Positions 23,993 through 40,787 of a stretch of 64,000 bases of DNA are shown here, in pieces. Position 1 is the stretch's first letter, and every line of letters starts with the position of its first letter. The stretch spans positions 14,770 through 78,769 of the forward strand of contig CAYVQU010000001.1 in assembly GCA_964453155.1 (NCBI GenBank), written 5' to 3'. This DNA is from an uncultured Anaerolineales bacterium. Lineage in GTDB: Bacteria > Chloroflexota > Anaerolineae > Anaerolineales > UBA11858. Both the position numbers and the translations under genes were made by a program. Below the pieces are notes generated by a model. The model was not told where the DNA came from, ran no database searches, and worked only from the letters and a program-made list of their open reading frames with translations.

Positions 23993-24185
23993 TTCGGCTC
24001 CAGTGTTAGCAAGTTGCAAGAAATTTCGTTAGGGCAAACAGAACCATAATCCCCCCAGGTTAAAGACAACAAGCATCGCACCGAATCTTGCTGAGCGCGA
24101 AGCTTGCTAAAAGTGGTTATATTTGATTGGAACCCTAAATGTGGGTCTTCATCAACAACAGATATCATCACAAAAAAGTGTCAGG

Positions 24186-24256
24186 CAGGGGAGCCCGGAT
24201 TCGAACCAGGATCAACGATTCCAAAGACCGCTGTGCTGCCATTGCACCACTCCCCT
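24186..24256 (-). tRNA. tRNA-Gln (anticodon TTG)
   Basis: Reverse complement is AGGGGAGTGGTGCAATGGCAGCACAGCGGTCTTTGGAATCGTTGATCCTGGTTCGAATCCGGGCTCCCCTG. Acceptor AGGGGAG/CTCCCCT, anticodon loop CTTTGGA, T loop TTCGAAT. Confidence 0.88.
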
Positions 24257-24354: not shown

Positions 24355-25425
24355 TTATTCCGATTTTTCGTCCGGAGCTAACCCTAGTTGTACCGCTTGT
24401 TCATAGGTCAAGGCATCTGCGTTTTGCAAATTATTCGAAGTTTCATCGGCCGTGACCGTATTCCAAAATTCATCGACTTCTTCGGTCTTTGGAACATTTG
24501 CATCCACCCCTTGGAATAATGCTTCAATAAGAGGCGCTTCTTCTTCCAAATCTACAGTATCGATCTGGTCTTCAGGCTCTTCTTCCACAACGACGGGTTG
24601 GTCATCTGATTTTAATCGCACGCCCATATTGAGCAAAATTTCATGCAAATCCCCTACACCAGCATAAACTCCCCTGACAATCGTGCTCAAATCTTCATCT
24701 ATATGAATCGGATTAACCGCCACCATCAAAGCATAAGCTTCACCAACGTGTGCCAATAAAATATCATATTTGGGGCCTGAAAAATAGGATAAATCATTGG
24801 GAGGATTCGTACCTAAAAACCGTGCTACCCGTTTACTAGCACTAAAAACCGACATTAAAGAGGGCAGCAGAGATGATTCTACGGTGGCATCGGGGAGATC
24901 ACCGGCACCGGCCAAGACACGCCCGCGATCATCGATAAGAACGGCAGAGAAAGCATCTAAATCGTTCCGCAGTTTTACTAACCGCTCGGAAACATTTTCC
25001 GATGGTTTGACGGTTTCTAAGACTGAAACAGTCGGTTCTATCGGTTCAGATTCAATCAATCCTAAGGTGCGTTCAACTGAATCCAGAAAATCGGCGGGAT
25101 CCATTGGTTTTAGGAAAAAAGCATCCGCGCCAGCATCGGCCACATCTCGCCGGACTTGAGCATCAACAGTTCCGGTAATTAAAATGACTTTGAGATCTGG
25201 ATTCCGAACTCGGACCTTCTCTAATAATTCCAGGCCACTCATGCCAGGCAGCATGATGTCTGAAACTAGCAAATCAATATCTTGACCCCGAATTTCTAGG
25301 AAAGCTTCCTCCCCGGAGGGAACCGCAATCACTTCAAATTCGGACCCCAAAGTTTCAACTGCAGATTTCAACATAATCCGCAATTCGCGTTGATCATCGA
25401 CAATGAGTACTCGGTACGAGGCCAT
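24355..25425 (-). CDS. Response regulator: REC receiver domain + Roadblock/LC7-like middle domain + acidic tail
   Basis: 356 aa. REC region VLIVDDQ...DLLVSDIMLPGMSGLELL...KVILITG. Middle region LDAFSAVLIDDRGRVLAGAGDLPD...YALMVAVNP resembles Roadblock/MglB (inference). No DNA-binding domain seen. Confidence 0.75.
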   Translation of the reverse strand: MASYRVLIVDDQRELRIMLKSAVETLGSEFEVIAVPSGEEAFLEIRGQDIDLLVSDIMLPGMSGLELLEKVRVRNPDLKVILITGTVDAQVRRDVADAGADAFFLKPMDPADFLDSVERTLGLIESEPIEPTVSVLETVKPSENVSERLVKLRNDLDAFSAVLIDDRGRVLAGAGDLPDATVESSLLPSLMSVFSASKRVARFLGTNPPNDLSYFSGPKYDILLAHVGEAYALMVAVNPIHIDEDLSTIVRGVYAGVGDLHEILLNMGVRLKSDDQPVVVEEEPEDQIDTVDLEEEAPLIEALFQGVDANVPKTEEVDEFWNTVTADETSNNLQNADALTYEQAVQLGLAPDEKSE

Positions 25426-25534: not shown

Positions 25535-27661
25535 TCATTTCTCGGGCAATAAGACCTGAACCCCGGTTTGAAAGCCGTTTTGATATTCGATTCCATTTAA
25601 AATCTTAGTATATGGAAAGTTGACATTCTCAGCTACAAACTCGGTAACTGCGCGGGTATAAAGGGGGATGAAGGGCCGCTGATCGGCCAACATTTTTTGC
25701 ATCTGCAACCCATATTCGCGCCCGTTTTCCAAATCATTAGCCTGCTCGAAAGCCTCTGCCAGGATATCAAACTCAGCATTTTTGAAGCAAGAGGTATTCA
25801 ATCCGCCAGTTTCAAGCGTACAGTTGCTGCTATGCCAGAAAGTTTCGAAATATCCTGGATAAGCTGGGTTGCCAAGAGAGGTGCCAAAGATATATAAGTC
25901 ATAATCTGCAGCCACGAAAACTGCATCGAGGATAGCATTTCGGTCTGTCAGCTCGGATTGCACCGGAATTCCCAAATCCCGGGCCCATTCTGAAATCCTG
26001 TGAGTGAAAGTGGCCCGAACAAAATCAAACTCAGGACCAGGACCTAAAATTGTAATTTCAGGCATCGGATCACCCGTTGGCATCGTCAAACCATCGCCGG
26101 GGAGTATTGCTTGGGCGGCAGCATCCCAGGCCGGTTCGGTTTTCCAGACCCAGCCGGCATCTTTTAGAACCTGGACTGCCAGGGTCACTCTTTCTTGACG
26201 CGATCGTTTTTGATAAGGGTTGACGATATCAGGGTTATGCCAAAAAGTGTTTTCCGGCAGAACGGAGGAATACAACGGTTGGAGGGTAGCAGTCGAAACT
26301 TCTGTGATGATCCATTCACGATCCAGAAGAATGTCAAACACCTGTCGAAATTCAGAGGTTGAGAGGGGGTATTTCTGGGTATTAAAAGCTAAATAGAACA
26401 TTTCGTTGGCAGAGTTGGTAATCTCAACCAGGTGTTCTCCATTCCGCAACTCATCGATCTGGGGCGGCGTCAGCCCAATCGGATTAAGAACATAATCAAT
26501 ATCCCCACGCCCTAATGACTTCAGGGCGGCTTCTTGGGATCCAAAAATAACATAATCCAACCCAGGACTAAAAGCCTGATCTTGATACTGCCATAATGGA
26601 TCACTCGCGGGTTCGCCATACAAAGTATTTGTCATCCCATTTACAAATTGGCGGGTCCAAGTCCCATTCCGGTAACCGGTGAGGAGGGTATCGCGAAAAT
26701 AGTATTCATCATTGGGAACCAAGCGAATTAATTCTCCCGGCAGCCAATCGGCTAGTTTATAACCACCTGCAACCGGGTAATCTTGAACATCGTGTGAGTA
26801 CAAATGTTGCCGGGCCTGTTCATAGACATCATCATAAGTTGCCCAACTATCACAAAGCGACTGCTCAGAGGGGGTCAACTTTAGAGCAGCACAATACGCT
26901 GGCCGGTCATCAAGCGGCGGCAAGGTTGTCCGAATCATTTCCTGGGCCTCAGAAACAATATCTTGCCAATAATGTTTGGGGAGGATGGGCGCTAGGGCGA
27001 TGCCAAACTGCCAGGTTTTTAAGGTTGGCGCTTGCCCCCTAAAGGTGTACTTCACTTGATATTCCCCCTGAGCGACGACCTCGATATTCGTTCCCTCCGG
27101 GCGGCAAAGATCGGCCCAGTAATGGGTGAGTTGCAAGTCCTGGCAAACCTGAATGGTAAATTCCACATCTTGGGCAGTGATCGGAGCACCATCACTCCAG
27201 ACGGCAGCGGGGATCATCTCAACTACAATTTCCCAGGAGCCATCTTCGGTTGGTTGTGGGCTAGGAATATCCAGCGCTAGAGAGGGTACAAATTGATACT
27301 GCTGACCTGCTAATGTGAAAAGATGAGCGGCATCATTTCCAATGATATACCCTGTCCAAACTGAACTGCCCGGGCCAAGGTAATTCCAGTAATTTAGGGA
27401 GGCCGGTTCTTCATAGATTCCAATCCGAAATACATCACAACAACGCTCATCAGCTGCTGGGATGGTGGGTTCCGCAGTCGGCTTGGGAGTTGATTTCTGA
27501 GCGGTTGGTTCGGTTTCTAACTCTTTTTCGGCGGCCGACGTCTGCACTGCCACCGCGGTTTGAGAGCTCGCAGTAGGTTCAGGATTACCCGTTTGGCAAC
27601 TCGAGAGAAAAAAGAGTGCTATTCCAACGAAAATGCTACCAATGATATTTTTTTGATACAT
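25535..27661 (-). CDS. ABC transporter substrate-binding lipoprotein, family 5 (peptide/nickel type), oversized (708 aa)
   Basis: Signal plus lipobox FFLSSC, a long low-complexity tether, then an SBP_bac_5-like body. Confidence 0.85.
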   Translation of the reverse strand: MYQKNIIGSIFVGIALFFLSSCQTGNPEPTASSQTAVAVQTSAAEKELETEPTAQKSTPKPTAEPTIPAADERCCDVFRIGIYEEPASLNYWNYLGPGSSVWTGYIIGNDAAHLFTLAGQQYQFVPSLALDIPSPQPTEDGSWEIVVEMIPAAVWSDGAPITAQDVEFTIQVCQDLQLTHYWADLCRPEGTNIEVVAQGEYQVKYTFRGQAPTLKTWQFGIALAPILPKHYWQDIVSEAQEMIRTTLPPLDDRPAYCAALKLTPSEQSLCDSWATYDDVYEQARQHLYSHDVQDYPVAGGYKLADWLPGELIRLVPNDEYYFRDTLLTGYRNGTWTRQFVNGMTNTLYGEPASDPLWQYQDQAFSPGLDYVIFGSQEAALKSLGRGDIDYVLNPIGLTPPQIDELRNGEHLVEITNSANEMFYLAFNTQKYPLSTSEFRQVFDILLDREWIITEVSTATLQPLYSSVLPENTFWHNPDIVNPYQKRSRQERVTLAVQVLKDAGWVWKTEPAWDAAAQAILPGDGLTMPTGDPMPEITILGPGPEFDFVRATFTHRISEWARDLGIPVQSELTDRNAILDAVFVAADYDLYIFGTSLGNPAYPGYFETFWHSSNCTLETGGLNTSCFKNAEFDILAEAFEQANDLENGREYGLQMQKMLADQRPFIPLYTRAVTEFVAENVNFPYTKILNGIEYQNGFQTGVQVLLPEK

Positions 27662-27679
27662 CGTGCGGTCTCCTGCCGC

Positions 27680-27753
27680 AAAAAAAATAAGAACCGCGGT
27701 TTCTCACCGGTCGCAACAGCATATCGTTACGACACCAGTAAAGGCCGCGGTTC
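27680..27753 (-). terminator. Terminator/attenuator-like element between moxR and the downstream SBP gene
   Basis: GAACCGCGG (27691-27699) pairs with CCGCGGTTC (27745-27753). On the - strand the stem is followed by UUAUUUUUUUU. The large 45-nt loop makes it atypical. Confidence 0.3.
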
Positions 27754-27769
27754 GGTCGAAATTTCAACT

Positions 27770-28723
27770 TCAAGATAATGAATGTTTGCCCCCAGGAACC
27801 GGTATCCGGTCAAGAATTTCAGAGAGAATGACTTGCTCACTTAAGTCTTGCAGATGAGCACCTGGTGCCAAGATCATGCGATGCCCCAAAACAGCTTCCG
27901 CCAAAATTTGGACGTCATCGGGGATGACAAAATTGCGGCCAATCATCGCCGCCCGGGCCTGCCCGGCGCGGTAGAGTCCCAAACTGCCTCGGGGGCTGGC
28001 ACCTAAATAAGCATCAGTATGGTTTCGGGTTCGGCGCACAATTTCGACGATATACCGTTTGACCGCCGGATCGACATGGACAGATTGAATTTCTTTCTGA
28101 GCTTGTAAAACTTCAGCAACAGGTACAACTGGGGATAGAGCTTCAATGGGATGCCCAAATTGTTGGCGATCTAAAACATCGAGCTCATCGCCAAAATCAG
28201 GATACCCAAGTTTGATTCGCATTAAAAAGCGGTCGAGTTGGGCTTCGGGTAACCGGAATGTACCCTCATATTCAATCGGGTTTTGGGTTGCCAGAACCAT
28301 AAATAATTCGGGTAAATCGCGCGTCGTCCCGTCAACGGTAACCTGACGCTCCTGCATGGCTTCTAACAATGCCGATTGGGTTTTAGGTGTTGCCCGATTG
28401 ATTTCATCGGCTAAAACGATCTGAGCGATGATGGGGCCAGGGCGATATTCAAAAGTGGCGGTGGACTGATTGAAAATAGACACCCCGGTGACATCACTGG
28501 GCAGCATATCAGGGGTGAATTGAATCCGCCCAAATGAGCCGCCAATCGATTGGGCCAAACTCCGTGCCAGCATAGTTTTGCCAACGCCAGGAACATCCTC
28601 AATCAGCAAATGTCCCTGGCTCAGCAAACAATTTATCGCCAGTTCCACTGTGGCTCGTTTACCAACAATCACTTGTTCAATATTGGCGACTAATTTCTCG
28701 GATAATGTTTGAACTAATTTCAT
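27770..28723 (-). CDS. MoxR-family AAA+ ATPase
   Basis: 317 aa. Walker A EDVPGVGKT, Walker B plus sensor VLADEINRATPKTQSALLEAMQE, and the C-terminal MoxR lid region. The ATG overlaps the upstream stop (ATGA at 28720-28723). Confidence 0.92.
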   Translation of the reverse strand: MKLVQTLSEKLVANIEQVIVGKRATVELAINCLLSQGHLLIEDVPGVGKTMLARSLAQSIGGSFGRIQFTPDMLPSDVTGVSIFNQSTATFEYRPGPIIAQIVLADEINRATPKTQSALLEAMQERQVTVDGTTRDLPELFMVLATQNPIEYEGTFRLPEAQLDRFLMRIKLGYPDFGDELDVLDRQQFGHPIEALSPVVPVAEVLQAQKEIQSVHVDPAVKRYIVEIVRRTRNHTDAYLGASPRGSLGLYRAGQARAAMIGRNFVIPDDVQILAEAVLGHRMILAPGAHLQDLSEQVILSEILDRIPVPGGKHSLS

Positions 28724-31700
28724 GATTCATCCTCTAGCGTAACATTAATATATAAGGGTGGGTTTAACCAAAATATGGATCGTAAAATACCGATTTGAAA
28801 AATTTTTACCAAGAAAAATACCAACCATAGTCGATAGCGAAGTTGTTGATAGGTTTTTATCACATCCTTCGATTCAGCGGTGGTTCCCGCGGAATTAAAC
28901 AATAAGCTCACAAAAACATCTACGATGCGATCGAACAAAACCCTGCTTTCAGCAATCCATTCCGACCAATGACTTCCCTGACTAACCTGGTGGGTCAAAC
29001 GCTCAAATAAGGTTTGATACCGATAAACCGTATCACCAGGATTGAGCGGGATCCCACACCACCGGCCGTAACGATAAATTCGCTTGAATAACTGCGGGAC
29101 CAGGATTTCTACCGGCAATCGAGATAGCCACCAATCCACGATTAAACCAAACCCAATCAGGACCCCGATTACGAAAAATAATCCCGACCACAGACTTTGG
29201 ACCCAATTCTCAAAGGAAAATGGATTTTCAGGGATGAGTGGTTTCAAATCCAATTCAAAATTATCAACCAATTCGAGGAAGGGTTCTACCGGGCGGTCAA
29301 TCGCCTGGCGGCCGCCGGTGGGTTCAAATATCACCCAACCATATTCCGGGAAATAAATTTCCACCCAGGCATGGGCTTGATCTGCGGTGATAATGAATTG
29401 ACCATTCTCGGCATCATAGTTTTCACCGACATAGCCTTGAACATATCGGGCGGGCAACCCGGCTGCGCGCGCCAAGACAACCATCGCGGTTGAATAATAA
29501 TCGCAATAACCTTTTTGCAGGCTGAACAGGAAATAATCGGCAACATCAGCCCCGGCCGGCCCGGTGGATACATCCAGGGTATATGGAAACTGCCGTAGAT
29601 AGCGTTCAATCGCGACCGCTCGATCGTAAGGGGTGGGTTCAGTCGCGGTTAAGTCGCGGGCCAACGACAAAACCCGATCAGGCACGGTAGCTGGCAAAAT
29701 CAGATAACGATTACGAACCCAAGCCGGATAAATTTGACTGGCGGCCTGCAACTCCTCCACGCTAGCAATCTGGACTAGCGAATCAGCTCGATACGAGTCG
29801 GCGTCGACCGTGGCACCGAAAATATCGAACGCCCCAATATCATACTCTCTCATCCGCCAGGAAACCCGGAAATCTTGATCGACACTCAACGGATCCCCTA
29901 CGGTGTGCATCAGCCCGCCCAGGTTGGTGGCCATATTAATTTGTTGGCGAATCAGCAAATTATCCCCAGTGCCAATTGAAATGATGCGTTCTCCCGGAGT
30001 GTGATCCACAATATCGGCCTCGCGCGATTCCCAACCATAACCAATGTAGCGATCATATGTTAAGCTGCGAAGATAGAGGGGCTGCAAAGCCGCAAACATG
30101 TCAGTTTCAGGATGACCGGATTGGAGCGATTCGATCGCGACCGTCATGACAACTTGGTCTGCCAACTCTGGACCGGAACCGATCAAATGTGAATTGGGCA
30201 GTCCCCCAGCTCGACGGATATCGAGGGTGTCGCGTTGTTTGGAAGACTGATTCTCTAAGCCCATCGATTGGGCCAAATCGGCCGAAGCTGCGCTTTGGCC
30301 CGTCATCTGACGCGCCCAATTGGCCATCTTCTCAATCGATATCGAGGGGATCGTCAATGAAAACAGCATCAACCCCAGGGTTAGTAACACAGCTGCCAAT
30401 GAAAATTTAGAGCGGATTTGGCTGGCAAAATTGAGACGCTCTAACTGCCAGGCCGTCTCTTTGGTATCGTAAGTGTTAAATACCATCAAGGCACTAACCG
30501 CACCCAGCATAAAGATTATGTCGTAAGAACTACTCCGCACCGAAGCCAAACTAAAAACAACCAAAGCTAACGCCGGGAAAAACCCGAATAGGGGGTTCTT
30601 TCGACGGAAAAGTCCCCACATCGCCCAAACAGTTACCGACCAAATTACCAGGCCCCAAATAAAAGTGATCACAACTGGATCGAAAATGGCCTGACCTTGA
30701 GCCAAGGTTACACCCCAGGTCCACAACCGGTTCCCCAAAGCGACTACGCCATCGGTAAATTTGTTCAGCGTAATCATAAACGGTTGAAAATCGGGCTGAC
30801 CGGCCCGATCCATAACCCAGGCCGTAATTTGGGGCACTAACCGGGCGGCGCGGATGAAAAGATTCGCAACCACATCTCCGAGACGTCCCACCCGGAGGGT
30901 TGTTATGCCAAGGCCAATTCCACTACCAATTAGCGCCGCCCACCGTCCTTTTAGCTTTGACACTGTTAATCCCCAACCAATCAGAATCCCTCCAACTAGC
31001 AAAGACCAGAGAAAATCTCGTTCCAAACCCCGCACCGCATCACTGATGAGCCGCACCATCATCCCAAAAAACACCAGGATCAGGGCCCAATTTCGAAACA
31101 GGCGTTTAAATTTCTGCCAGGCGACTTCCCACCGATCAACGGATGCCGACGAGCGGCCAGAGCGACGCAACAAAAATTTGAGTTCGTCTTTTAATTCTTT
31201 TTCGGGGCTGTCTAGCAAATCAGCACTAATGGTGTAATGGGCAACCCCTAACTTGAGCAGACGTTTGCGAAAAATCTCAAGCTGACCTTCACCCCCAAAC
31301 GAAACCGGATCTAAAATGAGAACAGTTGGCACGATACCAACGCGCTTGATTAATTCCAGGGCATTGACCCACTCGGGCGAGAGGCTGGGGGTAATGACGA
31401 TGAGACTCGTCCGAGCCCCTAAAGAAGTCCGCAAGCGATCCAGAACTTGGGGTAATTTTGCGCCCCCAGGCTGAATCTTAGCCAATGACTTAAGGATCGC
31501 CCAAAGATGAGTATCCCCCATTTTGGGCGGATGCCAGGCCAATTCGTCGCCATGCGAGACAAACCCGACATGTTTACCTAATTGCAATCCCCGGTTGGCT
31601 AGGGAGGCCCCCAATATCACGCCATGTTCGGTAGTAGAACGTTTACCTTCCCCAACCTGAACCGCGGCATCCAAATCGAGCAGAATCCACCAATCGCTGG

Positions 31701-32472
31701 TGGGTTCATCATCGAAAATGTGAACAAATGGCTCCCCAATACGGGCAGTGGTCGGCCAATGAAGCCAACGTAAACTATCACCCGGTACATATTCACGAAC
31801 CCCGGTAGTACTGACGGTTTGTTTGATGGCTCTGATCGAGGAATTTCCTTCTCCGATCCGCTCGCCAGAGGCAATTTCAATTTCCGGCAAGGCAATTACC
31901 GGCGGTGCAACCATCATGTTAACCGCATCGGCGTAGTCCACTGTCACTTCATAAATTCCAAAAGGATCACCCGATTCTAAGGTCACCGGACCTAAAGTAT
32001 AAATGCCGCGCTGACTGCATACGCCTTGGGTATGCCAATTGTGGTACCGCCAACCCTGAACTTCCGCCACTGAGCTGATTTCATACTCACTCATATCTGA
32101 GTGATCATCCACGGCAACCCAAAGCCCTGGGGCCCAACTGTTATTTTCGAGGGACACCCGTTCTCGCAATTGATCCCCAACCTGCTTCCAATCAAAGCGC
32201 ATTTCTCTTTCTATGCGCAACCCCCGTTTCAAAGAATACGTCCAGATATAAGCCAACAACCACATCCCCCCAAATCCCGCTAACAAGATCACCCAGCCCT
32301 TAAATGGGAAAAACAATTGGATAATTAATAATCCAATTACCACTACCGGGAGCAAACGAGTTTTAAGTTTTAGCGTTCTGACGGGTTCATCGCGGGGTGT
32401 CATACAAGTCTTACTGCTAAGTGACAAAAGCGGTTCAATCCTTACAATAGGCGGTGTGACTTCCAGCCACAC
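28720..32472 (-). CDS. Fusion protein: DUF58 (vWA-fold MoxR partner) + multi-TM region + transglutaminase-like core (TgpA-like) + DUF4129-like tail
   Basis: 1250 aa. DUF58 signature GVREYVPGDSLRWLHWPTTARIGEPFVHIFDDE (res ~224-256). At least six hydrophobic segments lie in res ~460-710. TGase core is QKGYCDYYS (Cys990), DQAHAWVEIY (His1034) and GWVIFEPT (Glu1050). The start is either GTG 32472 or ATG 32403; the GTG lies inside a 17-bp hairpin. Confidence 0.85.
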   Translation of the reverse strand: MWLEVTPPIVRIEPLLSLSSKTCMTPRDEPVRTLKLKTRLLPVVVIGLLIIQLFFPFKGWVILLAGFGGMWLLAYIWTYSLKRGLRIEREMRFDWKQVGDQLRERVSLENNSWAPGLWVAVDDHSDMSEYEISSVAEVQGWRYHNWHTQGVCSQRGIYTLGPVTLESGDPFGIYEVTVDYADAVNMMVAPPVIALPEIEIASGERIGEGNSSIRAIKQTVSTTGVREYVPGDSLRWLHWPTTARIGEPFVHIFDDEPTSDWWILLDLDAAVQVGEGKRSTTEHGVILGASLANRGLQLGKHVGFVSHGDELAWHPPKMGDTHLWAILKSLAKIQPGGAKLPQVLDRLRTSLGARTSLIVITPSLSPEWVNALELIKRVGIVPTVLILDPVSFGGEGQLEIFRKRLLKLGVAHYTISADLLDSPEKELKDELKFLLRRSGRSSASVDRWEVAWQKFKRLFRNWALILVFFGMMVRLISDAVRGLERDFLWSLLVGGILIGWGLTVSKLKGRWAALIGSGIGLGITTLRVGRLGDVVANLFIRAARLVPQITAWVMDRAGQPDFQPFMITLNKFTDGVVALGNRLWTWGVTLAQGQAIFDPVVITFIWGLVIWSVTVWAMWGLFRRKNPLFGFFPALALVVFSLASVRSSSYDIIFMLGAVSALMVFNTYDTKETAWQLERLNFASQIRSKFSLAAVLLTLGLMLFSLTIPSISIEKMANWARQMTGQSAASADLAQSMGLENQSSKQRDTLDIRRAGGLPNSHLIGSGPELADQVVMTVAIESLQSGHPETDMFAALQPLYLRSLTYDRYIGYGWESREADIVDHTPGERIISIGTGDNLLIRQQINMATNLGGLMHTVGDPLSVDQDFRVSWRMREYDIGAFDIFGATVDADSYRADSLVQIASVEELQAASQIYPAWVRNRYLILPATVPDRVLSLARDLTATEPTPYDRAVAIERYLRQFPYTLDVSTGPAGADVADYFLFSLQKGYCDYYSTAMVVLARAAGLPARYVQGYVGENYDAENGQFIITADQAHAWVEIYFPEYGWVIFEPTGGRQAIDRPVEPFLELVDNFELDLKPLIPENPFSFENWVQSLWSGLFFVIGVLIGFGLIVDWWLSRLPVEILVPQLFKRIYRYGRWCGIPLNPGDTVYRYQTLFERLTHQVSQGSHWSEWIAESRVLFDRIVDVFVSLLFNSAGTTAESKDVIKTYQQLRYRLWLVFFLVKIFQIGILRSIFWLNPPLYINVTLEDES

Positions 32473-32484
32473 CGCCTATTGTAA
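32442..32484 (-). promoter_or_regulatory. 17-bp perfect hairpin at the permease / DUF58-TGase gene junction
   Basis: TTACAATAGGCGGTGTG (32442-32458) and CACACCGCCTATTGTAA (32468-32484) with a 9-nt loop. It begins 2 nt after the upstream TAG. There is no U-run. Confidence 0.55.
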
Positions 32485-32485
32485 A

Positions 32486-35400
32486 CTACACTTCTCGTAA
32501 CCGGGGATTAATCACTCGATCGAGGGCAAACCCAAAGAGAGCAAATGCCAGACCGGTGATCATCAACAGGCCAATCGGCTCCAAAATCCAATAATAATGC
32601 CCCAAGAGATGAGCACTGTTATCAAAGGCATCAAAAACCACTTTCCCCCAGGTTGGCAAATAGGGATCACTCAACCCGAGATATGCCAGGGTGGCTTCGT
32701 AAAATACATATCCCGGCACCATGATGACCAGTTGAGGTAACAAAATTGGCACAATCCGAGGGATCAGATATTGGAAAACTATCCGGCGATTTCCCGCGCC
32801 GTAAGCCCGGGCACCTTCAATATAATCGGCTTCTTTCACCTGTAAAAATGCGGCCCGATAATTTTTAATCGAACTGCCAAAGATGTTCAGCAGCACAATA
32901 ACCCCCAAAATGACCCAGATACTCTTGGAATACATGATATAGATCATGACGGCAATCGGCAAGGTGGGCAAAATAATGTTGATTTCAGTAATTCGTTGAA
33001 TTAGATTATCGACCCAACCCCCATACCAGACCCCAAACGCAGAAATGAACATCGCGGCCAGGCCCGTACCAACTGCCCCCAGTAATCCAAATGCCAACGC
33101 GACTGGCGTCCCCCATAACAGAGCGACCTTCAAATCCCGCCGGTGATGGTCGGTTCCAGCAATCCCATGGACGCGGCCGTAGAGTACAAATTCAGCCTCA
33201 AAATCTGATTCGGATTCAAACACAATACCGCTGACTTTGAGTTGATAGCGCCCATTTAAGGGAGTCGGTTCTTCGAAATTGGGATCGGCAAACAGCCCGA
33301 TTTGGGGTGCCAACCCCCTCAACCGACGTTGGAGGCGTTCATCTTGAACCATACGGTAAATATGAGGATTCTCAAGTGAAAAACTACTCAACCGGATTTC
33401 ACGCTGATCGGGGGTCAACCAAGTTAGCGACACATGTGGCAGTTTTTCATCAAACTCACTCGCGAAAAAGAGGGTCAGCTCTTCAGGGAATTGGGCGTAG
33501 TTGTAGTCAAATTCAAAAATCACGGTCACATCGGTAGTCTCTGCATTGACTTGTTCGTAAACCTTGGTGACCGCTGGGGCACGGGTATCCAGAATTAATG
33601 TCTCAGGTAATTTTTCGGTGCGGAACCAATTCGTCCACCCAGGGGCCGCGTTGCGCGGGTATTTTTCCCATGAATCGGTCGTATGGGTCCGCCACAACAC
33701 AACGGCTTCATTATATGGCAGGGCGAAAACAGTATATATGGAAACGCCAATCAATATCAAAATTACTGCCATCCCCACCAACGCGGAAGGGTACCGGCGC
33801 AGCTCTTTTACGAGCGATTTTTGAGTATTGAACAGACCCTTCCGGCCCTGCCAACCGCCTACAAACAGAGATTTCAGGAAATTTGGAATTGCGCTCAGCG
33901 CGTGGGACAATTCAGTGATGCCCCTGAATATCACGGTTGGTACCGCACCCACTCGGGTAAGCCACGTCGCAGATCGTCTAACAGTAAGCATTCGATTTCC
34001 GTTGTTCCCGAGCCGTACTTTGGGGTCCACGAGACCATATACCAAATCCAATACAAAGACTGTTATTGCCAAAATATAGGCGAATATCACCACAATGGCC
34101 ACAATGATGGGGGTACTGGTGTTATTAAACCGCGTAACCGCCTGTAAAAAGAGCTGACCAATTCCGGGCCAATGGAATAGCAGTTCGAGCGCGATTGCAG
34201 TTTCCCAGAGGGTGATCATCATCATTGCAAAATTGGTAATCACATAAGGAAAAGTTGGTCGCAAAATGTATTTACGTTCAATCGCACGTTCCGACAAGCC
34301 CATCGCTTTGGCCATTTCGACATAATCTTCCTGCGAATAGATCAGGAAAAATGTTCGCCAGGCGTAAACTCCTTGGAAGAAAACGCTCAAGAAAATCGCC
34401 AGTACGGGCATGATCAGTTGTTTTGCCAAGACCCCTAAAAATCGGCGGGAATAATCGGCATATTGGAGATCGATGGCCACCGGGAAAGGCAGCCAGCGTA
34501 ATTGCGCCGCTAAAATTAGGATTAATAAGATGCCATAGATCCAACTTGGGGCCGAACTCAAAGCAGCCAGGACCGCACTCATCCGGTCGAGCCAACTACC
34601 ATATTTGCGCGATAAAAACAGGGCGACAAAAATACTCGTAAAAAAGAAAATGATATTTGCGACCCCCACCAGAATCAGTGTAAATGGTAGTCGTTCTAAT
34701 ACCATTTCCTGGACTGAGCGATTTCCACTTTGGAATATACCCTTGAAGAAATAATTCAACCGGGCTTCTCCCAGGTTCAGCGTCAGACCATGAAACAGCC
34801 AACGAACCGTCCGCAGCATGAAAGGATCATGCAATCCCATTGATTCTTCCAACCCCCATTCCATATTTTCAAGGTAGGCGTCCTGTTCTTTTTCCGGAAT
34901 TTCATCCAGACCCCCCGCCATCACAAAACCCATGATTTGCTGAGCCACCATCCCTCGCATGATTTCATCGACATAACCGCCCATATTGGCGACCAAAATG
35001 GTCAAATAAACACCGATGACAACCGTAAAAAACAGGGTGATGAGTTTTTTCAGCGAGTATTTTGAGAAATCGATCACCCCTTTAAATCGGTCAAACTTCT
35101 GGTTTCCTCGGACTTGCTCATCTGAAATTAGTATTACTGGTTTCCGTTCGAGGTTATTAAGAGCCCCCATAGCTTCCGAATGCTGGGCGTTAACCCGCAA
35201 GGTTTGGTGTAACAACGCTTTTTGTAGCCCAAGAGTCTGCGTCGCCTGACTTAGTAAATACCAGGCGTCATCATTGGCAGGATCGGAATGCAATATTTTT
35301 TGTAGCAGGGCGCGTGCCGCATCCCAGTCTGCTTGCCCAATTAAGACCTGAGCTTGGGAAAGTTGTGAGGCGCTGTCAGGTACTGATGATGTTTTTTGGG

Positions 35401-35665
35401 GAGCAGTTTGTATTTTGAGTTGGGGTTCTAAACGGTCCAGTTGTTCCCTGGCATTTCCGTTATCAGGGTTCAGGCGTAAAACCTGCTGTAAAGCATATGT
35501 TTTGCCAGCCAGATCAGAAACCGCAAAACTCAAGGCATACCAGGCCTGCGCATCATCTGGATTCTGACGCAAAATACCAATTAAAATTTCTCGAGCCTGC
35601 TCGATGTTTCCAGCTCTAATTTGATTTACCGCAGCTGTAAATGATTTTGCAGTGATGGCATCCAT
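32486..35665 (-). CDS. Triple fusion: N-terminal TPR repeats + OppB/DppB-type permease + OppC/DppC-type permease
   Basis: 1059 aa. TPR-like repeats: NPDDAQAWYALSFAV, NPDNGNAREQL and DPANDDAWYLLSQA. The first permease half is paralogous to 39392-40534 (VYLTILVANMGGYVDEIMRG; EAA loop EDYVEMAKAMGLSERAIERKYILRPT). The second half is paralogous to 38049-39395 (YPSALVGMAVIL...; DYIEGARAYGAGNRRIVFQYLIPRI). Confidence 0.88.
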   Translation of the reverse strand: MDAITAKSFTAAVNQIRAGNIEQAREILIGILRQNPDDAQAWYALSFAVSDLAGKTYALQQVLRLNPDNGNAREQLDRLEPQLKIQTAPQKTSSVPDSASQLSQAQVLIGQADWDAARALLQKILHSDPANDDAWYLLSQATQTLGLQKALLHQTLRVNAQHSEAMGALNNLERKPVILISDEQVRGNQKFDRFKGVIDFSKYSLKKLITLFFTVVIGVYLTILVANMGGYVDEIMRGMVAQQIMGFVMAGGLDEIPEKEQDAYLENMEWGLEESMGLHDPFMLRTVRWLFHGLTLNLGEARLNYFFKGIFQSGNRSVQEMVLERLPFTLILVGVANIIFFFTSIFVALFLSRKYGSWLDRMSAVLAALSSAPSWIYGILLILILAAQLRWLPFPVAIDLQYADYSRRFLGVLAKQLIMPVLAIFLSVFFQGVYAWRTFFLIYSQEDYVEMAKAMGLSERAIERKYILRPTFPYVITNFAMMMITLWETAIALELLFHWPGIGQLFLQAVTRFNNTSTPIIVAIVVIFAYILAITVFVLDLVYGLVDPKVRLGNNGNRMLTVRRSATWLTRVGAVPTVIFRGITELSHALSAIPNFLKSLFVGGWQGRKGLFNTQKSLVKELRRYPSALVGMAVILILIGVSIYTVFALPYNEAVVLWRTHTTDSWEKYPRNAAPGWTNWFRTEKLPETLILDTRAPAVTKVYEQVNAETTDVTVIFEFDYNYAQFPEELTLFFASEFDEKLPHVSLTWLTPDQREIRLSSFSLENPHIYRMVQDERLQRRLRGLAPQIGLFADPNFEEPTPLNGRYQLKVSGIVFESESDFEAEFVLYGRVHGIAGTDHHRRDLKVALLWGTPVALAFGLLGAVGTGLAAMFISAFGVWYGGWVDNLIQRITEINIILPTLPIAVMIYIMYSKSIWVILGVIVLLNIFGSSIKNYRAAFLQVKEADYIEGARAYGAGNRRIVFQYLIPRIVPILLPQLVIMVPGYVFYEATLAYLGLSDPYLPTWGKVVFDAFDNSAHLLGHYYWILEPIGLLMITGLAFALFGFALDRVINPRLREV

Positions 35666-35776
35666 GTTCTTAGGATTTTACGTGAAACTATCCAGTCCCA
35701 CAATCAAAAATTCTATACTTCTTACCAATAAGCAAAACAAGCAGTTCATTCAACCCCCACAAAACCGATAGAAATA

Positions 35777-35817
35777 TTCAGCCTTGCTTTGGGAAAAAAT
35801 CTCAAAGCAAGGCTGAA
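35777..35817 (-). terminator. Intrinsic terminator ending the upstream oppBCDF unit
   Basis: 15-bp perfect stem TTCAGCCTTGCTTTG / CAAAGCAAGGCTGAA with an 11-nt loop. The - strand continues UAUUUCUAUCGGUUUU. Confidence 0.55.
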
Positions 35818-35837
35818 AGTTTTTCAAACCAATAAAT

Positions 35838-36038
35838 CTATTTCCGACCGACTTTTGCGTACCAGGCGGCTCCGATTATGCCCATAAGCAACCCACCTAC
35901 AGATGCAAAATAGGACACGAAGTTAAGGAAAAAAGTGGATTTCAAAATACCCATTACCATCAGGAAGGGTGCCACAAACCCAAATAGCACCATGAAAAAC
36001 CCGATGATGATCAGTTGTCTTGGTCTAACTGTGTCCAT
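35838..36038 (-). CDS. Small two-TM membrane protein (66 aa)
   Basis: ATG at 36036-38 gives MDTVRPRQLIIIGFFMVLFGFVAPFLMVMGILKSTFFLNFVSYFASVGGLLMGIIGAAWYAKVGRK. It overlaps the oppF-like stop by 14 nt. The longer track ORF (to 36125) overlaps oppF out of frame. Confidence 0.5.
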   Translation of the reverse strand: MDTVRPRQLIIIGFFMVLFGFVAPFLMVMGILKSTFFLNFVSYFASVGGLLMGIIGAAWYAKVGRK

Positions 36039-37071
36039 TATCCTTATACAGCCAGCAATAGGTGGTGTGGCCCGCCTCCGTCGGTTCGAACTCGGGCGGA
36101 TCTTCAACATCGCAGAGACCGGCAATCATCTTCGCACAGCGAGGATGGAACCGACAGCCAGCGGGTGGGTTAACCAAACTGGGGGGCTCGCCAGGGGGAA
36201 TCTCTTTGAAGGTTTTGGCATTATCGGCATCCGGCTCCGAGGTCCCTTGTAACAGGGCATCGGTATAAGGATGCAAGTGATCGTAAAGAATGCCATCCAC
36301 GGGTGATTTTTCAATTAGCTGTCCGGCGTACATCACAAAGATGCGATCCGAGAAATAACGCACCGTTGAGAGGTCGTGAGTAATGTAGATCACGGCCAGG
36401 TTGTGGGTTTGCTGCAATCCTTCCAACAGCTTCAAGATTTCAACCCGTACGGAGGCGTCGAGCATCGAAACCGGCTCATCGGCCACAATCAGTTTGGGTT
36501 CCAAAATCATCGCCCGGGCAATAACCACCCGCTGCTGCTGACCACCACTCAGCATGTGAGGGAACTTGTCGATGAAATCATCTACTGGGTTCAACTTTAC
36601 TTCGTCCATCACCCTGCGGATGCGTTCGGTGCGTTCAGCTTGGTCAGAGACACCGTTAATGATCAACGGTTCTGCTAAAATCCGTTCAATGGTCATGAAG
36701 GGCGGCAGCGCGCCATAGGGGTCCTGCTGGACAAAACCAATTTTCGAGCGGAACTTTCGCAGTTCCGAGCCAGATAACTCGGTCAATTTTTGGCCATCAA
36801 ACTCGACCTCACCACTGTGGGGCGTGTTGATACCCAAAATTGTTTTCATCAGGCTGGTTTTACCCGAACCACTCTCACCAACGATGGCAATCGCATCACC
36901 GTACCCCAGGTCGAAGCTGACATTGTCAACCGCCCGGACGTAACCGGCATGGGCAAAACCCCACTTCTTTAATTCAAACCATACTCGCAAATTTTGAATG
37001 GACAGCAGAGGTGCATCGCCATTATCCATCGTTTGTACGTTTTCAGTCATTTCTTTCAAATTTTCTGTCAT
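36025..37071 (-). CDS. Oligopeptide/dipeptide ABC transporter ATP-binding protein (OppF/DppF-like)
   Basis: Walker A GESGSGKTS, signature LSGGQQQRV, Walker B IVADEPVSMLD, and a C-terminal oligo_HPY Cys cluster GCRFHPRC. The ATG at 37071 has GAGGG upstream. The alternative ATG at 37101 overlaps the oppD-like gene. Confidence 0.9.
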   Translation of the reverse strand: MTENLKEMTENVQTMDNGDAPLLSIQNLRVWFELKKWGFAHAGYVRAVDNVSFDLGYGDAIAIVGESGSGKTSLMKTILGINTPHSGEVEFDGQKLTELSGSELRKFRSKIGFVQQDPYGALPPFMTIERILAEPLIINGVSDQAERTERIRRVMDEVKLNPVDDFIDKFPHMLSGGQQQRVVIARAMILEPKLIVADEPVSMLDASVRVEILKLLEGLQQTHNLAVIYITHDLSTVRYFSDRIFVMYAGQLIEKSPVDGILYDHLHPYTDALLQGTSEPDADNAKTFKEIPPGEPPSLVNPPAGCRFHPRCAKMIAGLCDVEDPPEFEPTEAGHTTYCWLYKDNGHS

Positions 37072-37079
37072 GATGCCCT

Positions 37080-38045
37080 CTATTCTGCGTGCAGCCAGCA
37101 TTGAACCAGACGGCCTTCTTTATTGACGACCGGCGGGTCCTGGTCACATTTCTCAAAGCGGAAAGAACAGCGCGGGGCGAACCGGCAGCCCGGTTTGAGA
37201 CCAATCAATGACGGGGGCTTACCTGGAATAAACTCAAGTTCCTGGTTGCCACGCAAACGCGGCACGCTGGCCATCAATTTTTGGGAGTAAGGATGCAACG
37301 GAGCGTCGAAGAAGCGGTGGGCGTCACTGACCTCCACAATCTGACCCGCATACATCACGGCCACGCGTTCGGCCAACTCACTGGAAGTAGCGATATCGTG
37401 GGTAATGAGGATGAAGCTGACATCAAATTCTTGCTTGACCCGCTTGAGTAGGTTGAAGATGTTGGTTTGGGTCAACACGTCGAGAGCCGAGGTAGGTTCG
37501 TCAAGGATGACGACTTCGGGGGTGGTTACCAAGGCCATCGCGATAGCCACGCGCTGGCGCATCCCACCGCTCAACTCAAAGGCATAGCGGTTCAAGAAGT
37601 CAACTGGCACACCCACTCGCTGGAACATGTCACTGGCATGAGCCAGGGCTTTCTCCTTCGAAATCCCTGCATGGATCATCAGGGGTTCGGCCACCTGATC
37701 ACCAACTTTGAGCACCGGGTTGAGGGCATTCATAGCTGCTTGGGGCACCATCGACATGCGCACCCAGCGGACCTGGCGCCGATATTCTTCGTCGCCCATG
37801 GCCATCAATTCCATTTCGTTGAGATTGACAGTACCGGCGTAAGTATCAATGTTGCGGGGCAACAATCGCAGGATAGCCCGAGCCAGGGATGTTTTGCCAC
37901 AGCCCGACTCGCCCAGGATGACGATGGCATCGTTATAACCCAAATCGAGGTCAACTTTGTCCACCGCTTGTACAACCCCACCCGAAGCTCGGAAATAGAG
38001 TTGCAAATCTTCGATGTGTAAAAGTGGTTTGTTATTGTTCGTCAT
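37080..38045 (-). CDS. Oligopeptide/dipeptide ABC transporter ATP-binding protein (OppD/DppD-like)
   Basis: GESGCGKTS, LSGGMRQRV, VILDEPTSALD, C-terminal GCRFAPRC. Confidence 0.9.
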   Translation of the reverse strand: MTNNNKPLLHIEDLQLYFRASGGVVQAVDKVDLDLGYNDAIVILGESGCGKTSLARAILRLLPRNIDTYAGTVNLNEMELMAMGDEEYRRQVRWVRMSMVPQAAMNALNPVLKVGDQVAEPLMIHAGISKEKALAHASDMFQRVGVPVDFLNRYAFELSGGMRQRVAIAMALVTTPEVVILDEPTSALDVLTQTNIFNLLKRVKQEFDVSFILITHDIATSSELAERVAVMYAGQIVEVSDAHRFFDAPLHPYSQKLMASVPRLRGNQELEFIPGKPPSLIGLKPGCRFAPRCSFRFEKCDQDPPVVNKEGRLVQCWLHAE

Positions 38046-38048
38046 GGA

Positions 38049-39395
38049 TTACAGACCTCGCAATCGGGGATTGAAGATGCGGTCGAGAGAATAACCGATG
38101 GTGGCGAAAGCCAAACCGGTCATCATCAGCAGGACCGAGGGCTGCAGCACCCAATAGTATTGACCCACATACAGGGCCCCATTGGTGTTGGCCTCATTAA
38201 TGATTTTGCCCCAAGTCGGCAGGATCGGGTCACCAAGACCGAGGACGGCCAGAGAAGCCTCCAAAAACACGAACGCGGGGATTAAAGTTACAAATTGGGG
38301 GATCAGCAGGGGAATGATCCGGGGGATGAGGTAACTGAAAATAATGCGGGTGTGACCAGCTCCATAAGCCTGAGCAGCCTCAATATAGGAGGAGGCTTTT
38401 ACCTGCAAGAACATCGCCCGGTAGGTTTTGATCCCGCCACTAAAGATATTTAGCGCGATGATCACGCCCAACATCATCCAGATACTACGGGAATAAAATG
38501 TACCAACCATGATGAGAATTGGCAGCACCGGCAAAATCAGGTTGACCTCAGTGATCCGCTGAATTAGTTCATCCACCCAGCCACCCATCCAGACACCGAT
38601 CGCAGCGATGATCATGGTGGTAATGGTGGTGCCAACAGCGGCAATCAAACCAAAGGACAAGGCAATCGGGGTCCCCCATAACAAGGCAATCGACAGATCC
38701 CGGCGACGGTGGTCGGTTCCCGCCCAACCTGAAACCCGACCAAACATCACTAATTCGGCATCGACATCGACGCCTTCTTCAAAGACCAGACCGGTAATCT
38801 GAAGTTCATAATTGCCTTTGAGAGGAACCTGCTCTTCAGAATTGGGATCGGCAAACAAAGCTACTTGAGGGGCTTCCCCCTTCAACTTCCGCTGTAAACG
38901 CTCATCTTGTGAAACCCGGTAAGTCTGATGGCTTTTCTCCAAAGAAAGACTACTAAAGCGAATCTCGCGACCATCCGGCGTCACCCATGTAAGTGAGATA
39001 TGGGAAAACTTCTCTTCGAAATCACTCTTGAAAATGAGGGAAATTTCATCCGGGAATTCATCGGCCTGATAATCGAATTTGAAAGAGAACATAATGTCGG
39101 TCGATTCTTCACCGGCTTTTTCATATGTTTTAACAATTTCTTCATCAGCAGAATTCAATACCACAGTCTCGGGTAGTTTTTCATTGCGGAACCAGTTGAC
39201 CCACACAGGGGCCGCGGTTTTGGGGGAGTTGTACCAGACTTCCTCGCCACCCCGCCACATGTAAACCGCCTCGTTATAGGGAATAGCAATCATTGTAAAA
39301 ATGGAGATTCCAATCAGACCAAAGATGATCGCCAGCCCCACCATTGCGGAGGGATAATTTCTAATCTCAGAAAATGTTCTTTTTAACCAGTTCAT
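38049..39395 (-). CDS. OppC/DppC-type ABC permease with ~190-aa extracytoplasmic insert after TM1
   Basis: 448 aa. TM1 is MVGLAIIFGLIGISIFTMIAI, followed by a long hydrophilic segment up to GTDHRRRDL, then the five-TM core with EAA loop SYIEAAQAYGAGHTRIIFSYLIPRI. Confidence 0.88.
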   Translation of the reverse strand: MNWLKRTFSEIRNYPSAMVGLAIIFGLIGISIFTMIAIPYNEAVYMWRGGEEVWYNSPKTAAPVWVNWFRNEKLPETVVLNSADEEIVKTYEKAGEESTDIMFSFKFDYQADEFPDEISLIFKSDFEEKFSHISLTWVTPDGREIRFSSLSLEKSHQTYRVSQDERLQRKLKGEAPQVALFADPNSEEQVPLKGNYELQITGLVFEEGVDVDAELVMFGRVSGWAGTDHRRRDLSIALLWGTPIALSFGLIAAVGTTITTMIIAAIGVWMGGWVDELIQRITEVNLILPVLPILIMVGTFYSRSIWMMLGVIIALNIFSGGIKTYRAMFLQVKASSYIEAAQAYGAGHTRIIFSYLIPRIIPLLIPQFVTLIPAFVFLEASLAVLGLGDPILPTWGKIINEANTNGALYVGQYYWVLQPSVLLMMTGLAFATIGYSLDRIFNPRLRGL

Positions 39396-40731: not shown

Positions 40732-40770
40732 AAAAAAAATCCTGGAGAGACACTGGCGTGTCTCTCCAGG
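40732..40770 (-). terminator. Strong intrinsic terminator directly after the 872-aa SBP gene
   Basis: Perfect 13-bp stem CCTGGAGAGACAC / GTGTCTCTCCAGG with loop TGGC (40741-40770), followed on the - strand by U8 (A8 at 40732-40739). Confidence 0.85.
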
Positions 40771-40787
40771 GATATTACTGTGTTAGG

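Follow-up and report, generated by a model that had tools for sequence, protein, structure and literature searches.

Do a MoxR-type AAA+ ATPase and a transglutaminase-like membrane protein work together with the ABC importer among whose genes they are encoded? The question is raised by a 64,000-nt stretch of DNA from an uncultured Anaerolineales bacterium (contig CAYVQU010000001.1, positions 14,770 to 78,769), which we call the window and to which all unlabeled coordinates refer. Four genes follow each other here: a permease in which tetratricopeptide repeats (TPR), OppB and OppC are fused, a fusion of DUF58 with a TgpA-like transglutaminase (DUF58~TgpA, "TG" below), a MoxR ATPase and a solute-binding protein (SBP) of 708 aa, SBP708. 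An operon for an oligopeptide-type (Opp) importer precedes them. An earlier examination of the letters and open reading frames (ORFs), hereafter the sequence-only reading, had taken the four genes as one transcription unit without an ABC ATPase. Its products were proposed to form a coupled module, in which an extracytoplasmic peptidase or cross-linker of the transglutaminase (TGase) fold, matured or gated by MoxR and DUF58, would process a substrate for the adjacent SBP and permease. We compared the locus with about 170 related loci (labeled L001-L172) and with the P0002 contig.

The locus is best read as a mosaic: in one Anaerolineales lineage, two ordinary systems have come to be neighbors. 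We consider it fairly probable that an autonomous MoxR/DUF58~TgpA envelope cassette has been inserted in an Opp locus with several receptors and several translocators, and that the accessory TPR-OppB-OppC permease borrows OppD and OppF in trans. The first system would be an importer of the peptide/nickel/oligosaccharide type (Opp/Dpp, PepT family) with the receptors SBP664, SBP872 and SBP708, the last being an ancestral tail gene of the Opp locus. It would have two translocators, OppB plus OppC and the paralogous single-chain TPR-OppB-OppC. The second system would be a self-contained cassette inserted between the accessory permease and SBP708. Judging from what is known of the families, a cytoplasmic MoxR hexamer would dock on the vWA-like DUF58 domain, and ATP-driven remodeling would control an extracytoplasmic Cys-His-Glu domain of the transglutaminase fold. 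By analogy with Pseudomonas aeruginosa TgpA, that domain may act on envelope proteins or peptides. The position of the cassette in the transporter locus would then reflect inherited gene order and not a shared mechanism. Its autonomy is supported, among other things, by its own borders, a hairpin upstream and a terminator downstream, and by its inverted orientation in a sister subclade.

The cassette and its borders

All four ORFs were found on the minus strand where the sequence-only reading had placed them (Table 1; TG as an ORF at 28720-32472), and every one of its domain calls was matched in a Pfam search. The 1250-aa ORF of TG carries DUF58 at residues 225-389 (PF01882, E 1e-22, above the gathering score) and Transglut_core at residues 936-1051 (PF01841, E 8e-27). 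Its sole match among solved structures is 6g49, the periplasmic domain of TgpA from P. aeruginosa (E 7e-20); the catalytic Cys and His of the two align. C967, H1011 and E1027 are invariant, and the third residue of the triad is Glu (FEPT), not Asp as in P. aeruginosa TgpA (VDPT), in all 70 of the 70 Anaerolineae sequences with a readable motif. Many homologues, as well as L066, have an entry for the TgpA_N family (PF11992), which the Pfam search did not report for the TG of the window.

Hydropathy and the positive-inside rule predict that TG consists of two transmembrane (TM) segments, a cytoplasmic DUF58 region of 380 aa, seven TM segments, an acidic outside domain of 383 aa that holds the TGase core, one further TM segment and a cytoplasmic tail. 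The N-terminal TM pair spans residues 17-56, both the N-terminus and the segment after TM2 are positively charged, and the short loops contain 15 Lys and Arg residues inside vs. 4 outside. From this topology, DUF58 is predicted to be cytoplasmic and the TGase domain extracytoplasmic. The prediction puts the TGase core on the side of the membrane assumed by the sequence-only reading and agrees with the periplasmic location of TgpA (PMC3507681).

A single ORF for DUF58 and TgpA is confined to the subclade of the window; in other loci, two adjacent genes encode DUF58 (∼430 aa) and TgpA (∼800 aa) separately. The single-polypeptide fusion is rare. In a library of 1.84 billion representative proteins it made up 3-4 of the 150 best-scoring clusters at 50% identity, nearly all others of these 150 being stand-alone TgpA, with a few stand-alone DUF58 and fragments. 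Full-text literature searches brought up no description of the fusion. As DUF58 is covalently joined to TgpA, a physical interaction of both parts is implied. By the "Rosetta-stone" argument, the fusion thus points to a direct action of DUF58 on TgpA, which would narrow the search for the MoxR substrate to TgpA. In one related locus (L025:5265-13674), moxR is followed by two tandem DUF58-TgpA gene pairs.

The MoxR protein matches AAA_3 over 131 of 131 profile positions (E 1e-64) as well as AAA_lid_2 (E 6e-21), and its Walker A (GVGKT) and Walker B (LADEINR) motifs are intact. The moxR gene is indeed coupled to the TG gene by a 4-nt ATGA overlap (28720-28723), as had been noticed from the sequence.

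The MoxR-DUF58-TgpA triad is known and its function is unsettled in the literature (PMC3507681, PMC12067865), and our full-text searches, in line with the sequence-only reading, came upon no description of the triad inside an Opp-type locus. In P. aeruginosa, PA2875-PA2874-PA2873 (MoxR-DUF58-TgpA) are co-transcribed; activity of the TgpA domain has been shown in vitro, and tgpA is an essential gene (PMC3507681). The window has the same three domain families and a polytopic TgpA with an extracytoplasmic transglutaminase-like domain. It differs in that DUF58 and TgpA form one polypeptide, in the gene order (TG-moxR vs. moxR-DUF58-tgpA), in the Glu (FEPT) in place of Asp, in the number of TM segments before the outside domain (7 vs. 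5) and in the position of the cassette inside an Opp-type transporter locus. In the bifidobacterial PFNA cluster and the mycobacterial moxR1 operon, a MoxR gene lies by DUF58, accompanied in the former by a transglutaminase and in the latter by a vWA membrane protein; their function is likewise unsettled, and MoxR1 has been reported as a chaperone of the cell-wall peptidase RipA (PMC12067865). Unlike these loci, the window is from Chloroflexota and has ABC importer neighbors and no Ser/Thr kinase, FN3 protein or RipA/B neighbors. Bat operons encode MoxR and DUF58 along with TPR-containing membrane proteins, the presumed scaffold of a membrane complex (PMC3557215). The window, by contrast, has neither BatA/BatB vWA-TM proteins nor vWA genes beyond DUF58, and its TPR are confined to the N-terminus of the permease. 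Finally, clusters of DUF4350/DUF4129, MoxR and DUF58 are predicted secretion or membrane-remodeling systems of archaea and bacteria, and in archaeal MoxR-vWA clusters DUF4350 resembles GldG, an accessory subunit of an ABC transporter (PMC5898192). They share with the window a MoxR (COG0714) paired with vWA/DUF58 and membrane proteins, and such a cluster follows the Opp block in L087 and L092; the module of the window differs in being of the TgpA type.

The borders of the cassette are marked by RNA structures. The three longest inverted repeats between 24 and 44 kb all lie at module borders, and the locus is punctuated as SBP872 / OppBCDF-small ORF / TPR-OppBC / TG-MoxR / SBP708-RR (RR, response regulator). 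A terminator after the Opp operon, previously placed at 35777-35817, was recovered as a strong hairpin (Table 1). Between moxR and the SBP gene we found a further hairpin followed by U8, of the canonical intrinsic-terminator form, which had escaped the sequence-only reading; its long structured loop explains why a simple scan missed it. It ends 18 nt upstream of the SBP708 ATG (27661), and an AGGAG ribosome-binding site is present. The four genes thus lie on the same strand with short gaps, yet a hairpin follows the permease gene and a terminator follows moxR. Because TG-moxR is bracketed by a 21-bp hairpin on its 5′ side and by the hairpin with U8 on its 3′ side, the sequence does not suggest one four-gene transcript, and a single transcription unit is not supported as first proposed.

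The 21-bp hairpin (32441-32485) also bears on the TG gene itself, for which the stop-side coordinate of the sequence-only reading stands and the GTG start at 32472 most likely does not. Since this GTG lies inside the perfect hairpin and all homologues measure ∼1220-1229 aa, the gene most likely begins at ATG 32403 and encodes 1227, not 1250, aa.

In orthologous loci, strong hairpins 3′ of moxR were found in L086 (z -5.5) and L008 (z -3.1) and less clearly in L001. In L085, oppF is separated from DUF58 by a canonical terminator. A motif of 19 nt, TGTTAAAATCNGCCGCATG, is exactly kept at the start of the SBP708 orthologue in L001 (14752-14770), L002 (18175-18193) and L086 (18074-18092), whose TG proteins are only ∼50-54% identical to that of the window. 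The motif is promoter-like, resembling an extended -10 box 7 nt upstream of the ATG, which suggests a leaderless SBP transcript in these three loci; it is absent from the window. A sigma-70 promoter scan of the window gave 20 hits, with 20.7 expected from shuffled sequence. As this count does not exceed the expectation, we made no promoter calls for the window, and manual inspection of the short spacers yielded no convincing -35/-10 pair. The intergenic hairpins were also considered as riboswitches or other known RNAs, for which Rfam at E ≤ 1 returned a tRNA alone, and as marks of repeated REP-like insertions, for which the 15-mer arm is not repeated in the window beyond chance.

The accessory permease and its probable ATPase

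The 1059-aa permease consists of a TPR part (residues 1-∼180, predicted to be cytoplasmic, with the repeats at ∼12-146) and two BPD_transp_1 domains (Pfam, E 1e-36). It is a paralogue of the upstream OppB and OppC. OppC448 aligns along its entire length with the C half at 59% identity, an unusual outside insert of ∼200 aa included, and OppB380 aligns with the B half at 46% identity. The EAA loops of the fused permease, EDYVEMAKAMGLS and ADYIEGARAYGAG, are almost the same as in these two proteins, and the EAA residues are invariant across the wider family of fused OppBC proteins. From this paralogy and the conservation of the EAA loops we infer that the fused permease probably uses OppD and OppF of the upstream operon in trans. 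The sharing of ATPases among permease sets is well known for ABC importers, e.g., the MsiK type in actinomycetes.

The sequence-only reading had emphasized that the unit of the fused permease has no ABC ATPase. This holds as an observation: no ABC ATPase gene lies between 35665 and 25535, no OppD/OppF pair dedicated to the permease unit was found, and the single pair of the 64-kb window belongs to the preceding unit (Table 1). It does not hold as a special trait. Fused OppB-OppC proteins form a large Anaerolineales family, with 372 members at E ≤ 1e-20 among the scored candidates. In a metagenome sample, an ABC ATPase gene was adjacent to only 10 of 42 fused OppBC genes, and none was seen beside 7 of the 10 whose flanks reach 3 kb or more in both directions, nor at L088. 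Where ATPase genes are close, they mostly belong to the Opp operon directly upstream, as in the window. Since fused OppBC genes usually come without ATPase genes of their own, the "ATPase-less" state is ordinary.

As in other Opp/Dpp/Nik importers, the window encodes BPD_transp_1 permeases with EAA loops, family-5 SBPs and OppD/OppF with an oligo_HPY tail. It departs from them in the fusion of OppB and OppC with TPR, in the ∼200-aa OppC insert and in its unusually large SBPs (664-872 aa). The insert is predicted to be extracytoplasmic and lies between TM1 and TM2 in both OppC448 and the fused permease (residues ∼650-850). The long SBPs (664, 708 and 872 aa) and the OppC inserts may be matched enlarged docking surfaces. 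For the substrate class, no NCBIfam equivalog cut-off was reached, the best matches (Opp2B, Opp4B, Opp4C, NikB and others) scoring 85-135 bits vs. 300-480. SBP708 is a family-5 lipoprotein of the same block, but its orthologues sit in other Opp operons with different permeases.

The locus in related genomes and the case for coupling

The TG homologues all came from metagenome-assembled genomes of Anaerolineales/Chloroflexota. We mapped 88 loci with profile hidden Markov models for MoxR, DUF58, TgpA, BPD permease, TPR, SBP5, OppD/F-type ATPase, RR and GlmU, and built a rough neighbor-joining tree of DUF58+TgpA whose deep branches are unreliable. The MoxR-DUF58 module is near-universal and vertically inherited in Anaerolineae, with at least 595 relatives confirmed among 599 pattern-matched stretches from a collection with one genome per species. 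MoxR and DUF58 are paired in 44 of 79 related loci. The order permease-TG-MoxR-SBP, which the sequence-only reading had proposed to follow in other genomes, recurs in at least six other contigs with TG proteins 51-79% identical to that of the window, so the gene content is not a chance pattern. The longer order Opp, TPR-OppBC, TG, MoxR, SBP, RR, GlmU is seen in the P0002 contig (TG 79% identical), L001, L008 and L086 and partly in L007. TG-MoxR stands alone in L003 and L004, and TG alone in L005 and L006. Among 79 species-representative TG loci, eight have a permease gene within 1 kb, four more have an adjacent Opp operon and 67 have neither.

In the sister subclade (L015, L018, L022, L037, L071), GlmU and RR on the minus strand are followed by DUF58, TgpA and MoxR on the plus strand and then by a giant (ABC-2)-OppB-OppC-Peptidase_M28 fusion on the minus strand. 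L016 begins in the same way, but there moxR is followed by a pair of ordinary permease genes on its own strand. In L014, an M28 fusion on the strand of moxR lies ∼2 kb downstream of it, and there is also a complete divergent Opp operon headed by an SBP708 orthologue. A single inversion of the TG-MoxR block turns the sister-subclade order into that of the window. As the block of the sister subclade lies on the strand opposite to both RR-GlmU and the fused permease, it cannot share a transcript with either neighbor. The giant single-chain proteins that adjoin moxR (1190-1490 aa; an optional ABC-2-type membrane domain, OppB, OppC and a C-terminal Peptidase_M28; Table 1) look, by their domains, like a permease with a built-in outside aminopeptidase. 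At only 27-33% identity, they are not orthologues of the window permease.

Relatives found from the transporter side fit the claim that TG-MoxR is nested in a transporter unit, as the fused permease and a trailing SBP follow each other uninterrupted in L170-172 and L123. In L170-172, downstream of an orthologous Opp operon come the small ORF, a fused permease whose N-terminus is TPR-like, and the trailing SBP, with no TG-MoxR. These loci represent the "host" unit without the insert, although their trailing SBP is not the SBP708 orthologue (23% identity in L170). A contig with the same flanks as the window (RsgA-sigma on one side, RR-GlmU-CNNM-CDA-DUF389 on the other) has just SBP, SBP, OppB, OppC, OppD, OppF and the SBP708 orthologue between them, with neither a fused permease nor TG-MoxR. 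In L169, the SBP708 orthologue heads an Opp operon, and an extra permease pair and then RR-GlmU follow. A fused permease lies directly before RR-GlmU in L093 and L164, an OppDF pair occupies this slot in L095 and L107, and in L089 an Opp operon and a TPR-fused permease are followed by unrelated genes, with no MoxR module nearby. What occupies the slot between the accessory permease and RR-GlmU thus varies, and all three modules can be found without the others. The housekeeping genes GlmU, CNNM and cytidine deaminase are also part of the synteny of this lineage. As this synteny covers plainly unrelated genes, conserved adjacency is weak evidence of a functional link. The coupled processing and uptake machine is therefore not supported in the form first proposed: its modules are separate in relatives, the cassette is inverted in the sister subclade and 67 of 79 TG loci have no transporter nearby.

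A true functional coupling of the TPR-tagged accessory permease, with or without SBP708, to the MoxR/DUF58~TgpA module remains the chief alternative to an autonomous cassette, and we regard it as less likely but still a serious rival. In one version, the TGase-fold domain would free or modify envelope- or substrate-derived peptides, which are then captured by SBP and permease; in another, MoxR-DUF58 would dock on the permease TPR to assemble or gate the translocator. Several observations favor coupling and weigh against autonomy. In the window itself, there is no space for a promoter between the terminator at 27680-27753 and the SBP708 start codon, so SBP708 expression may depend on read-through from moxR. 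The gene order is kept in the contigs described above even where TG is down to 51% identical. In L002, TG and moxR are separated by an OppB gene and a TPR-OppC-PQQ-propeller gene, all of them closely packed on one strand without strong intergenic structure. The propeller gene (L002:14408-17068) encodes an OppC-type permease of 886 aa with N-terminal TPR and a C-terminal PQQ-like beta-propeller. Its TPR are 30-35% identical to those of the window and its permease part just ∼25%; the L002 permeases are thus not orthologues of the window permease, and an OppC again carries an N-terminal TPR. In L087 and L092, an orthologous Opp block (∼70% identity) and one or more fused permeases are followed by a different, non-orthologous MoxR-DUF58-DUF4129 module. 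Its MoxR is 49% identical to that of the window, vs. 64-76% for all TgpA-linked MoxR proteins, and the DUF58 of L087 is unfused and 29% identical to that of the window, with a DUF4129 protein present. In clade E (L066, L082, L085), OppABCDF are followed by DUF58, TgpA and MoxR on one strand. The OppBC-Peptidase_M28 fusions that adjoin moxR in the sister subclade show that these genomes use the design "outside peptidase + Opp permease", and in L142 a fused permease is convergent with DUF58-MoxR. MoxR modules of three lineages thus adjoin Opp-type genes in Anaerolineae, and Opp genes are adjacent in 12 of 79 TG loci vs. 0-1 of ∼55 in other clades. Moreover, TPR proteins are typical members of the MoxR/DUF58/vWA operons of the Bat type (PMC3557215), and here the TPR is on the permease. 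Taken together, these observations allow a more specific proposal, put forward tentatively and with slightly less confidence than coupling as such. TPR-tagged, ATPase-less Opp permeases would be partners or clients of MoxR-DUF58(-TgpA), the TPR docking the AAA+/vWA pair, and the outside TGase-fold domain (in sisters, a permease-fused M28 or PQQ-propeller) would process peptides that are imported by permease and SBP708.

What tips the balance toward an autonomous cassette is that all three modules are found separately in relatives, that a TPR-fused permease occurs without a nearby MoxR module (L089) and that a MoxR module lies in the locus of only 2 of 42 sampled fused permeases. In addition, the cassette is on the strand opposite to its neighbors in the sister subclade, TG-moxR is flanked by hairpin and terminator, and the background synteny of unrelated genes is high. 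The recurrences are also phylogenetically clustered. By a rough count, which is an estimate and not a computed statistic, they amount to ∼3 independent adjacency events among perhaps 25-30 contexts, barely above chance. Two further explanations would give MoxR a different role. One lets MoxR substitute for the missing ABC ATPase and energize the fused permease via DUF58 and TPR, a notion prompted by a unit without ABC ATPase genes in which a cytoplasmic TPR and an AAA+/vWA pair are encoded side by side. We reject it as extremely improbable, since the permease has conserved EAA loops, at which ABC ATPases dock, and these are near-identical to those of OppB and OppC. The OppD/OppF genes lie 360 bp upstream, and most ATPase-less fused permeases also have no moxR nearby; to our knowledge, no AAA+-driven permease of the BPD type has been described. 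The other explanation, a MoxR-vWA conflict or defense system that came to lie in a transporter locus by chance, draws on a weak secondary Pfam match of MoxR to bpMoxR (E 5e-11) and on the link of MoxR-vWA pairs with conflict systems (Kaur et al., 2020, as referred to in PMC12067865). It is very unlikely too: the AAA_3 match is far stronger, the locus has no gene for a beta-propeller or effector partner, PADLOC gave negligible matches (E > 1e-4) for five proteins, and the module is near-universal and vertically inherited, unlike patchy defense islands.

The triad occurs widely, and P. aeruginosa cannot do without tgpA, yet no client or mechanism of the triad has been described. The Opp-type permeases beside MoxR modules of three lineages are a testable candidate partner, and if the TPR-permease is indeed a partner or client, it would be the first concrete one for the triad. 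If the adjacency is merely inherited gene order, which is more likely, the locus shows how importers can arrange several receptors and translocators around one ATPase pair.

Further features of the locus

The features of the locus are listed in Table 1 together with the modules and fusions of related loci discussed above. Next to the block lie RsgA and an ECF sigma factor at one end and the RR, GlmU, CNNM, cytidine deaminase and DUF389 at the other.

Table 1. Genes and RNA elements of the Opp-MoxR locus in the window, and selected elements of related loci (locus label before the coordinates).
Feature	Position	Strand	Evidence or remark
SBP664, family-5 solute-binding protein (664 aa), first SBP of the Opp locus	43709..45703	-	Pfam SBP_bac_5, E 3e-46
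SBP872, family-5 solute-binding lipoprotein (872 aa), second SBP	40788..43406	-	SBP_bac_5, E 8e-16; L087 orthologue 72% identical
Hairpin, 13 bp perfect, then T-run, between SBP872 and oppB	40741..40770	-	
OppB380, OppB-type permease (380 aa)	39392..40534	-	BPD_transp_1, E 2e-25
OppC448, OppC-type permease (448 aa)	38049..39395	-	Pfam BPD_transp_1
OppD-type ABC ATPase (321 aa)	37080..38045	-	Pfam ABC_tran + oligo_HPY
OppF-type ABC ATPase (358 aa)	36025..37101	-	Pfam ABC_tran + oligo_HPY
Small two-TM protein (66 aa)	35838..36038	-	Sequence; start overlaps oppF stop by 14 nt
Strong hairpin closing the Opp operon	35772..35822	-	dG -30.5 kcal/mol, z -6.3; inverted repeat I1
TPR-OppB-OppC fused accessory permease (1059 aa)	32486..35665	-	TPR families + 2x BPD_transp_1
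Hairpin, 21 bp perfect, right after the permease stop codon	32441..32485	-	dG -36 kcal/mol, z -4.9; inverted repeat I2
TG, DUF58~TgpA fusion (1227 aa, from the most likely start)	28720..32403	-	Pfam DUF58 + Transglut_core; PDB 6g49 match
MoxR-type AAA+ ATPase (317 aa)	27770..28723	-	AAA_3 + AAA_lid_2
Intrinsic-terminator-like element 3′ of moxR, extended hairpin + U8	27680..27753	-	dG -45 kcal/mol, z -4.7
SBP708, family-5 solute-binding lipoprotein (708 aa)	25535..27661	-	SBP_bac_5; signal peptide with lipobox FLSSC
Response regulator (RR)	24355..25425	-	Pfam Response_reg
tRNA-Gln (anticodon TTG), downstream end of the block	24184..24256	-	ARAGORN; Rfam tRNA, 61 bits
MoxR module: small TM protein, DUF4129 protein, ∼210-aa unassigned protein, MoxR, unfused DUF58, ∼165-aa protein without domain match	L087:15842-20688		
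MoxR module: DUF4129, ∼219-aa unassigned protein, MoxR, DUF58	L092:13211-17129		
M28-fused permease	L015:5272-9681		
M28-fused permease	L018:15152-18925		
M28-fused permease	L022:9125-13585		
M28-fused permease	L037:14743-19065		
M28-fused permease	L014:16628-20203		
M28-fused permease	L087:48-1820		

An ORF of 864 aa on the plus strand (40758-43352) runs antisense to nearly the whole SBP872 gene. It is probably a shadow ORF, as the SBP872 frame is backed by Pfam and by the 72%-identical orthologue. The RR consists of a REC domain and ∼230 residues without any domain match, and no histidine kinase gene was found beside it in the scanned part of the window. GlmU accompanies it in nearly all related loci, while its other neighbor varies between an SBP, a fused permease, OppF and a TG module. 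Orthologues of the small two-TM ORF, 46-52% identical and with 19 invariant positions, hold the same place after oppF in L086, L087, L170 and the P0002 contig. The 66-aa protein may be a previously unrecognized small subunit of this type of Opp importer.

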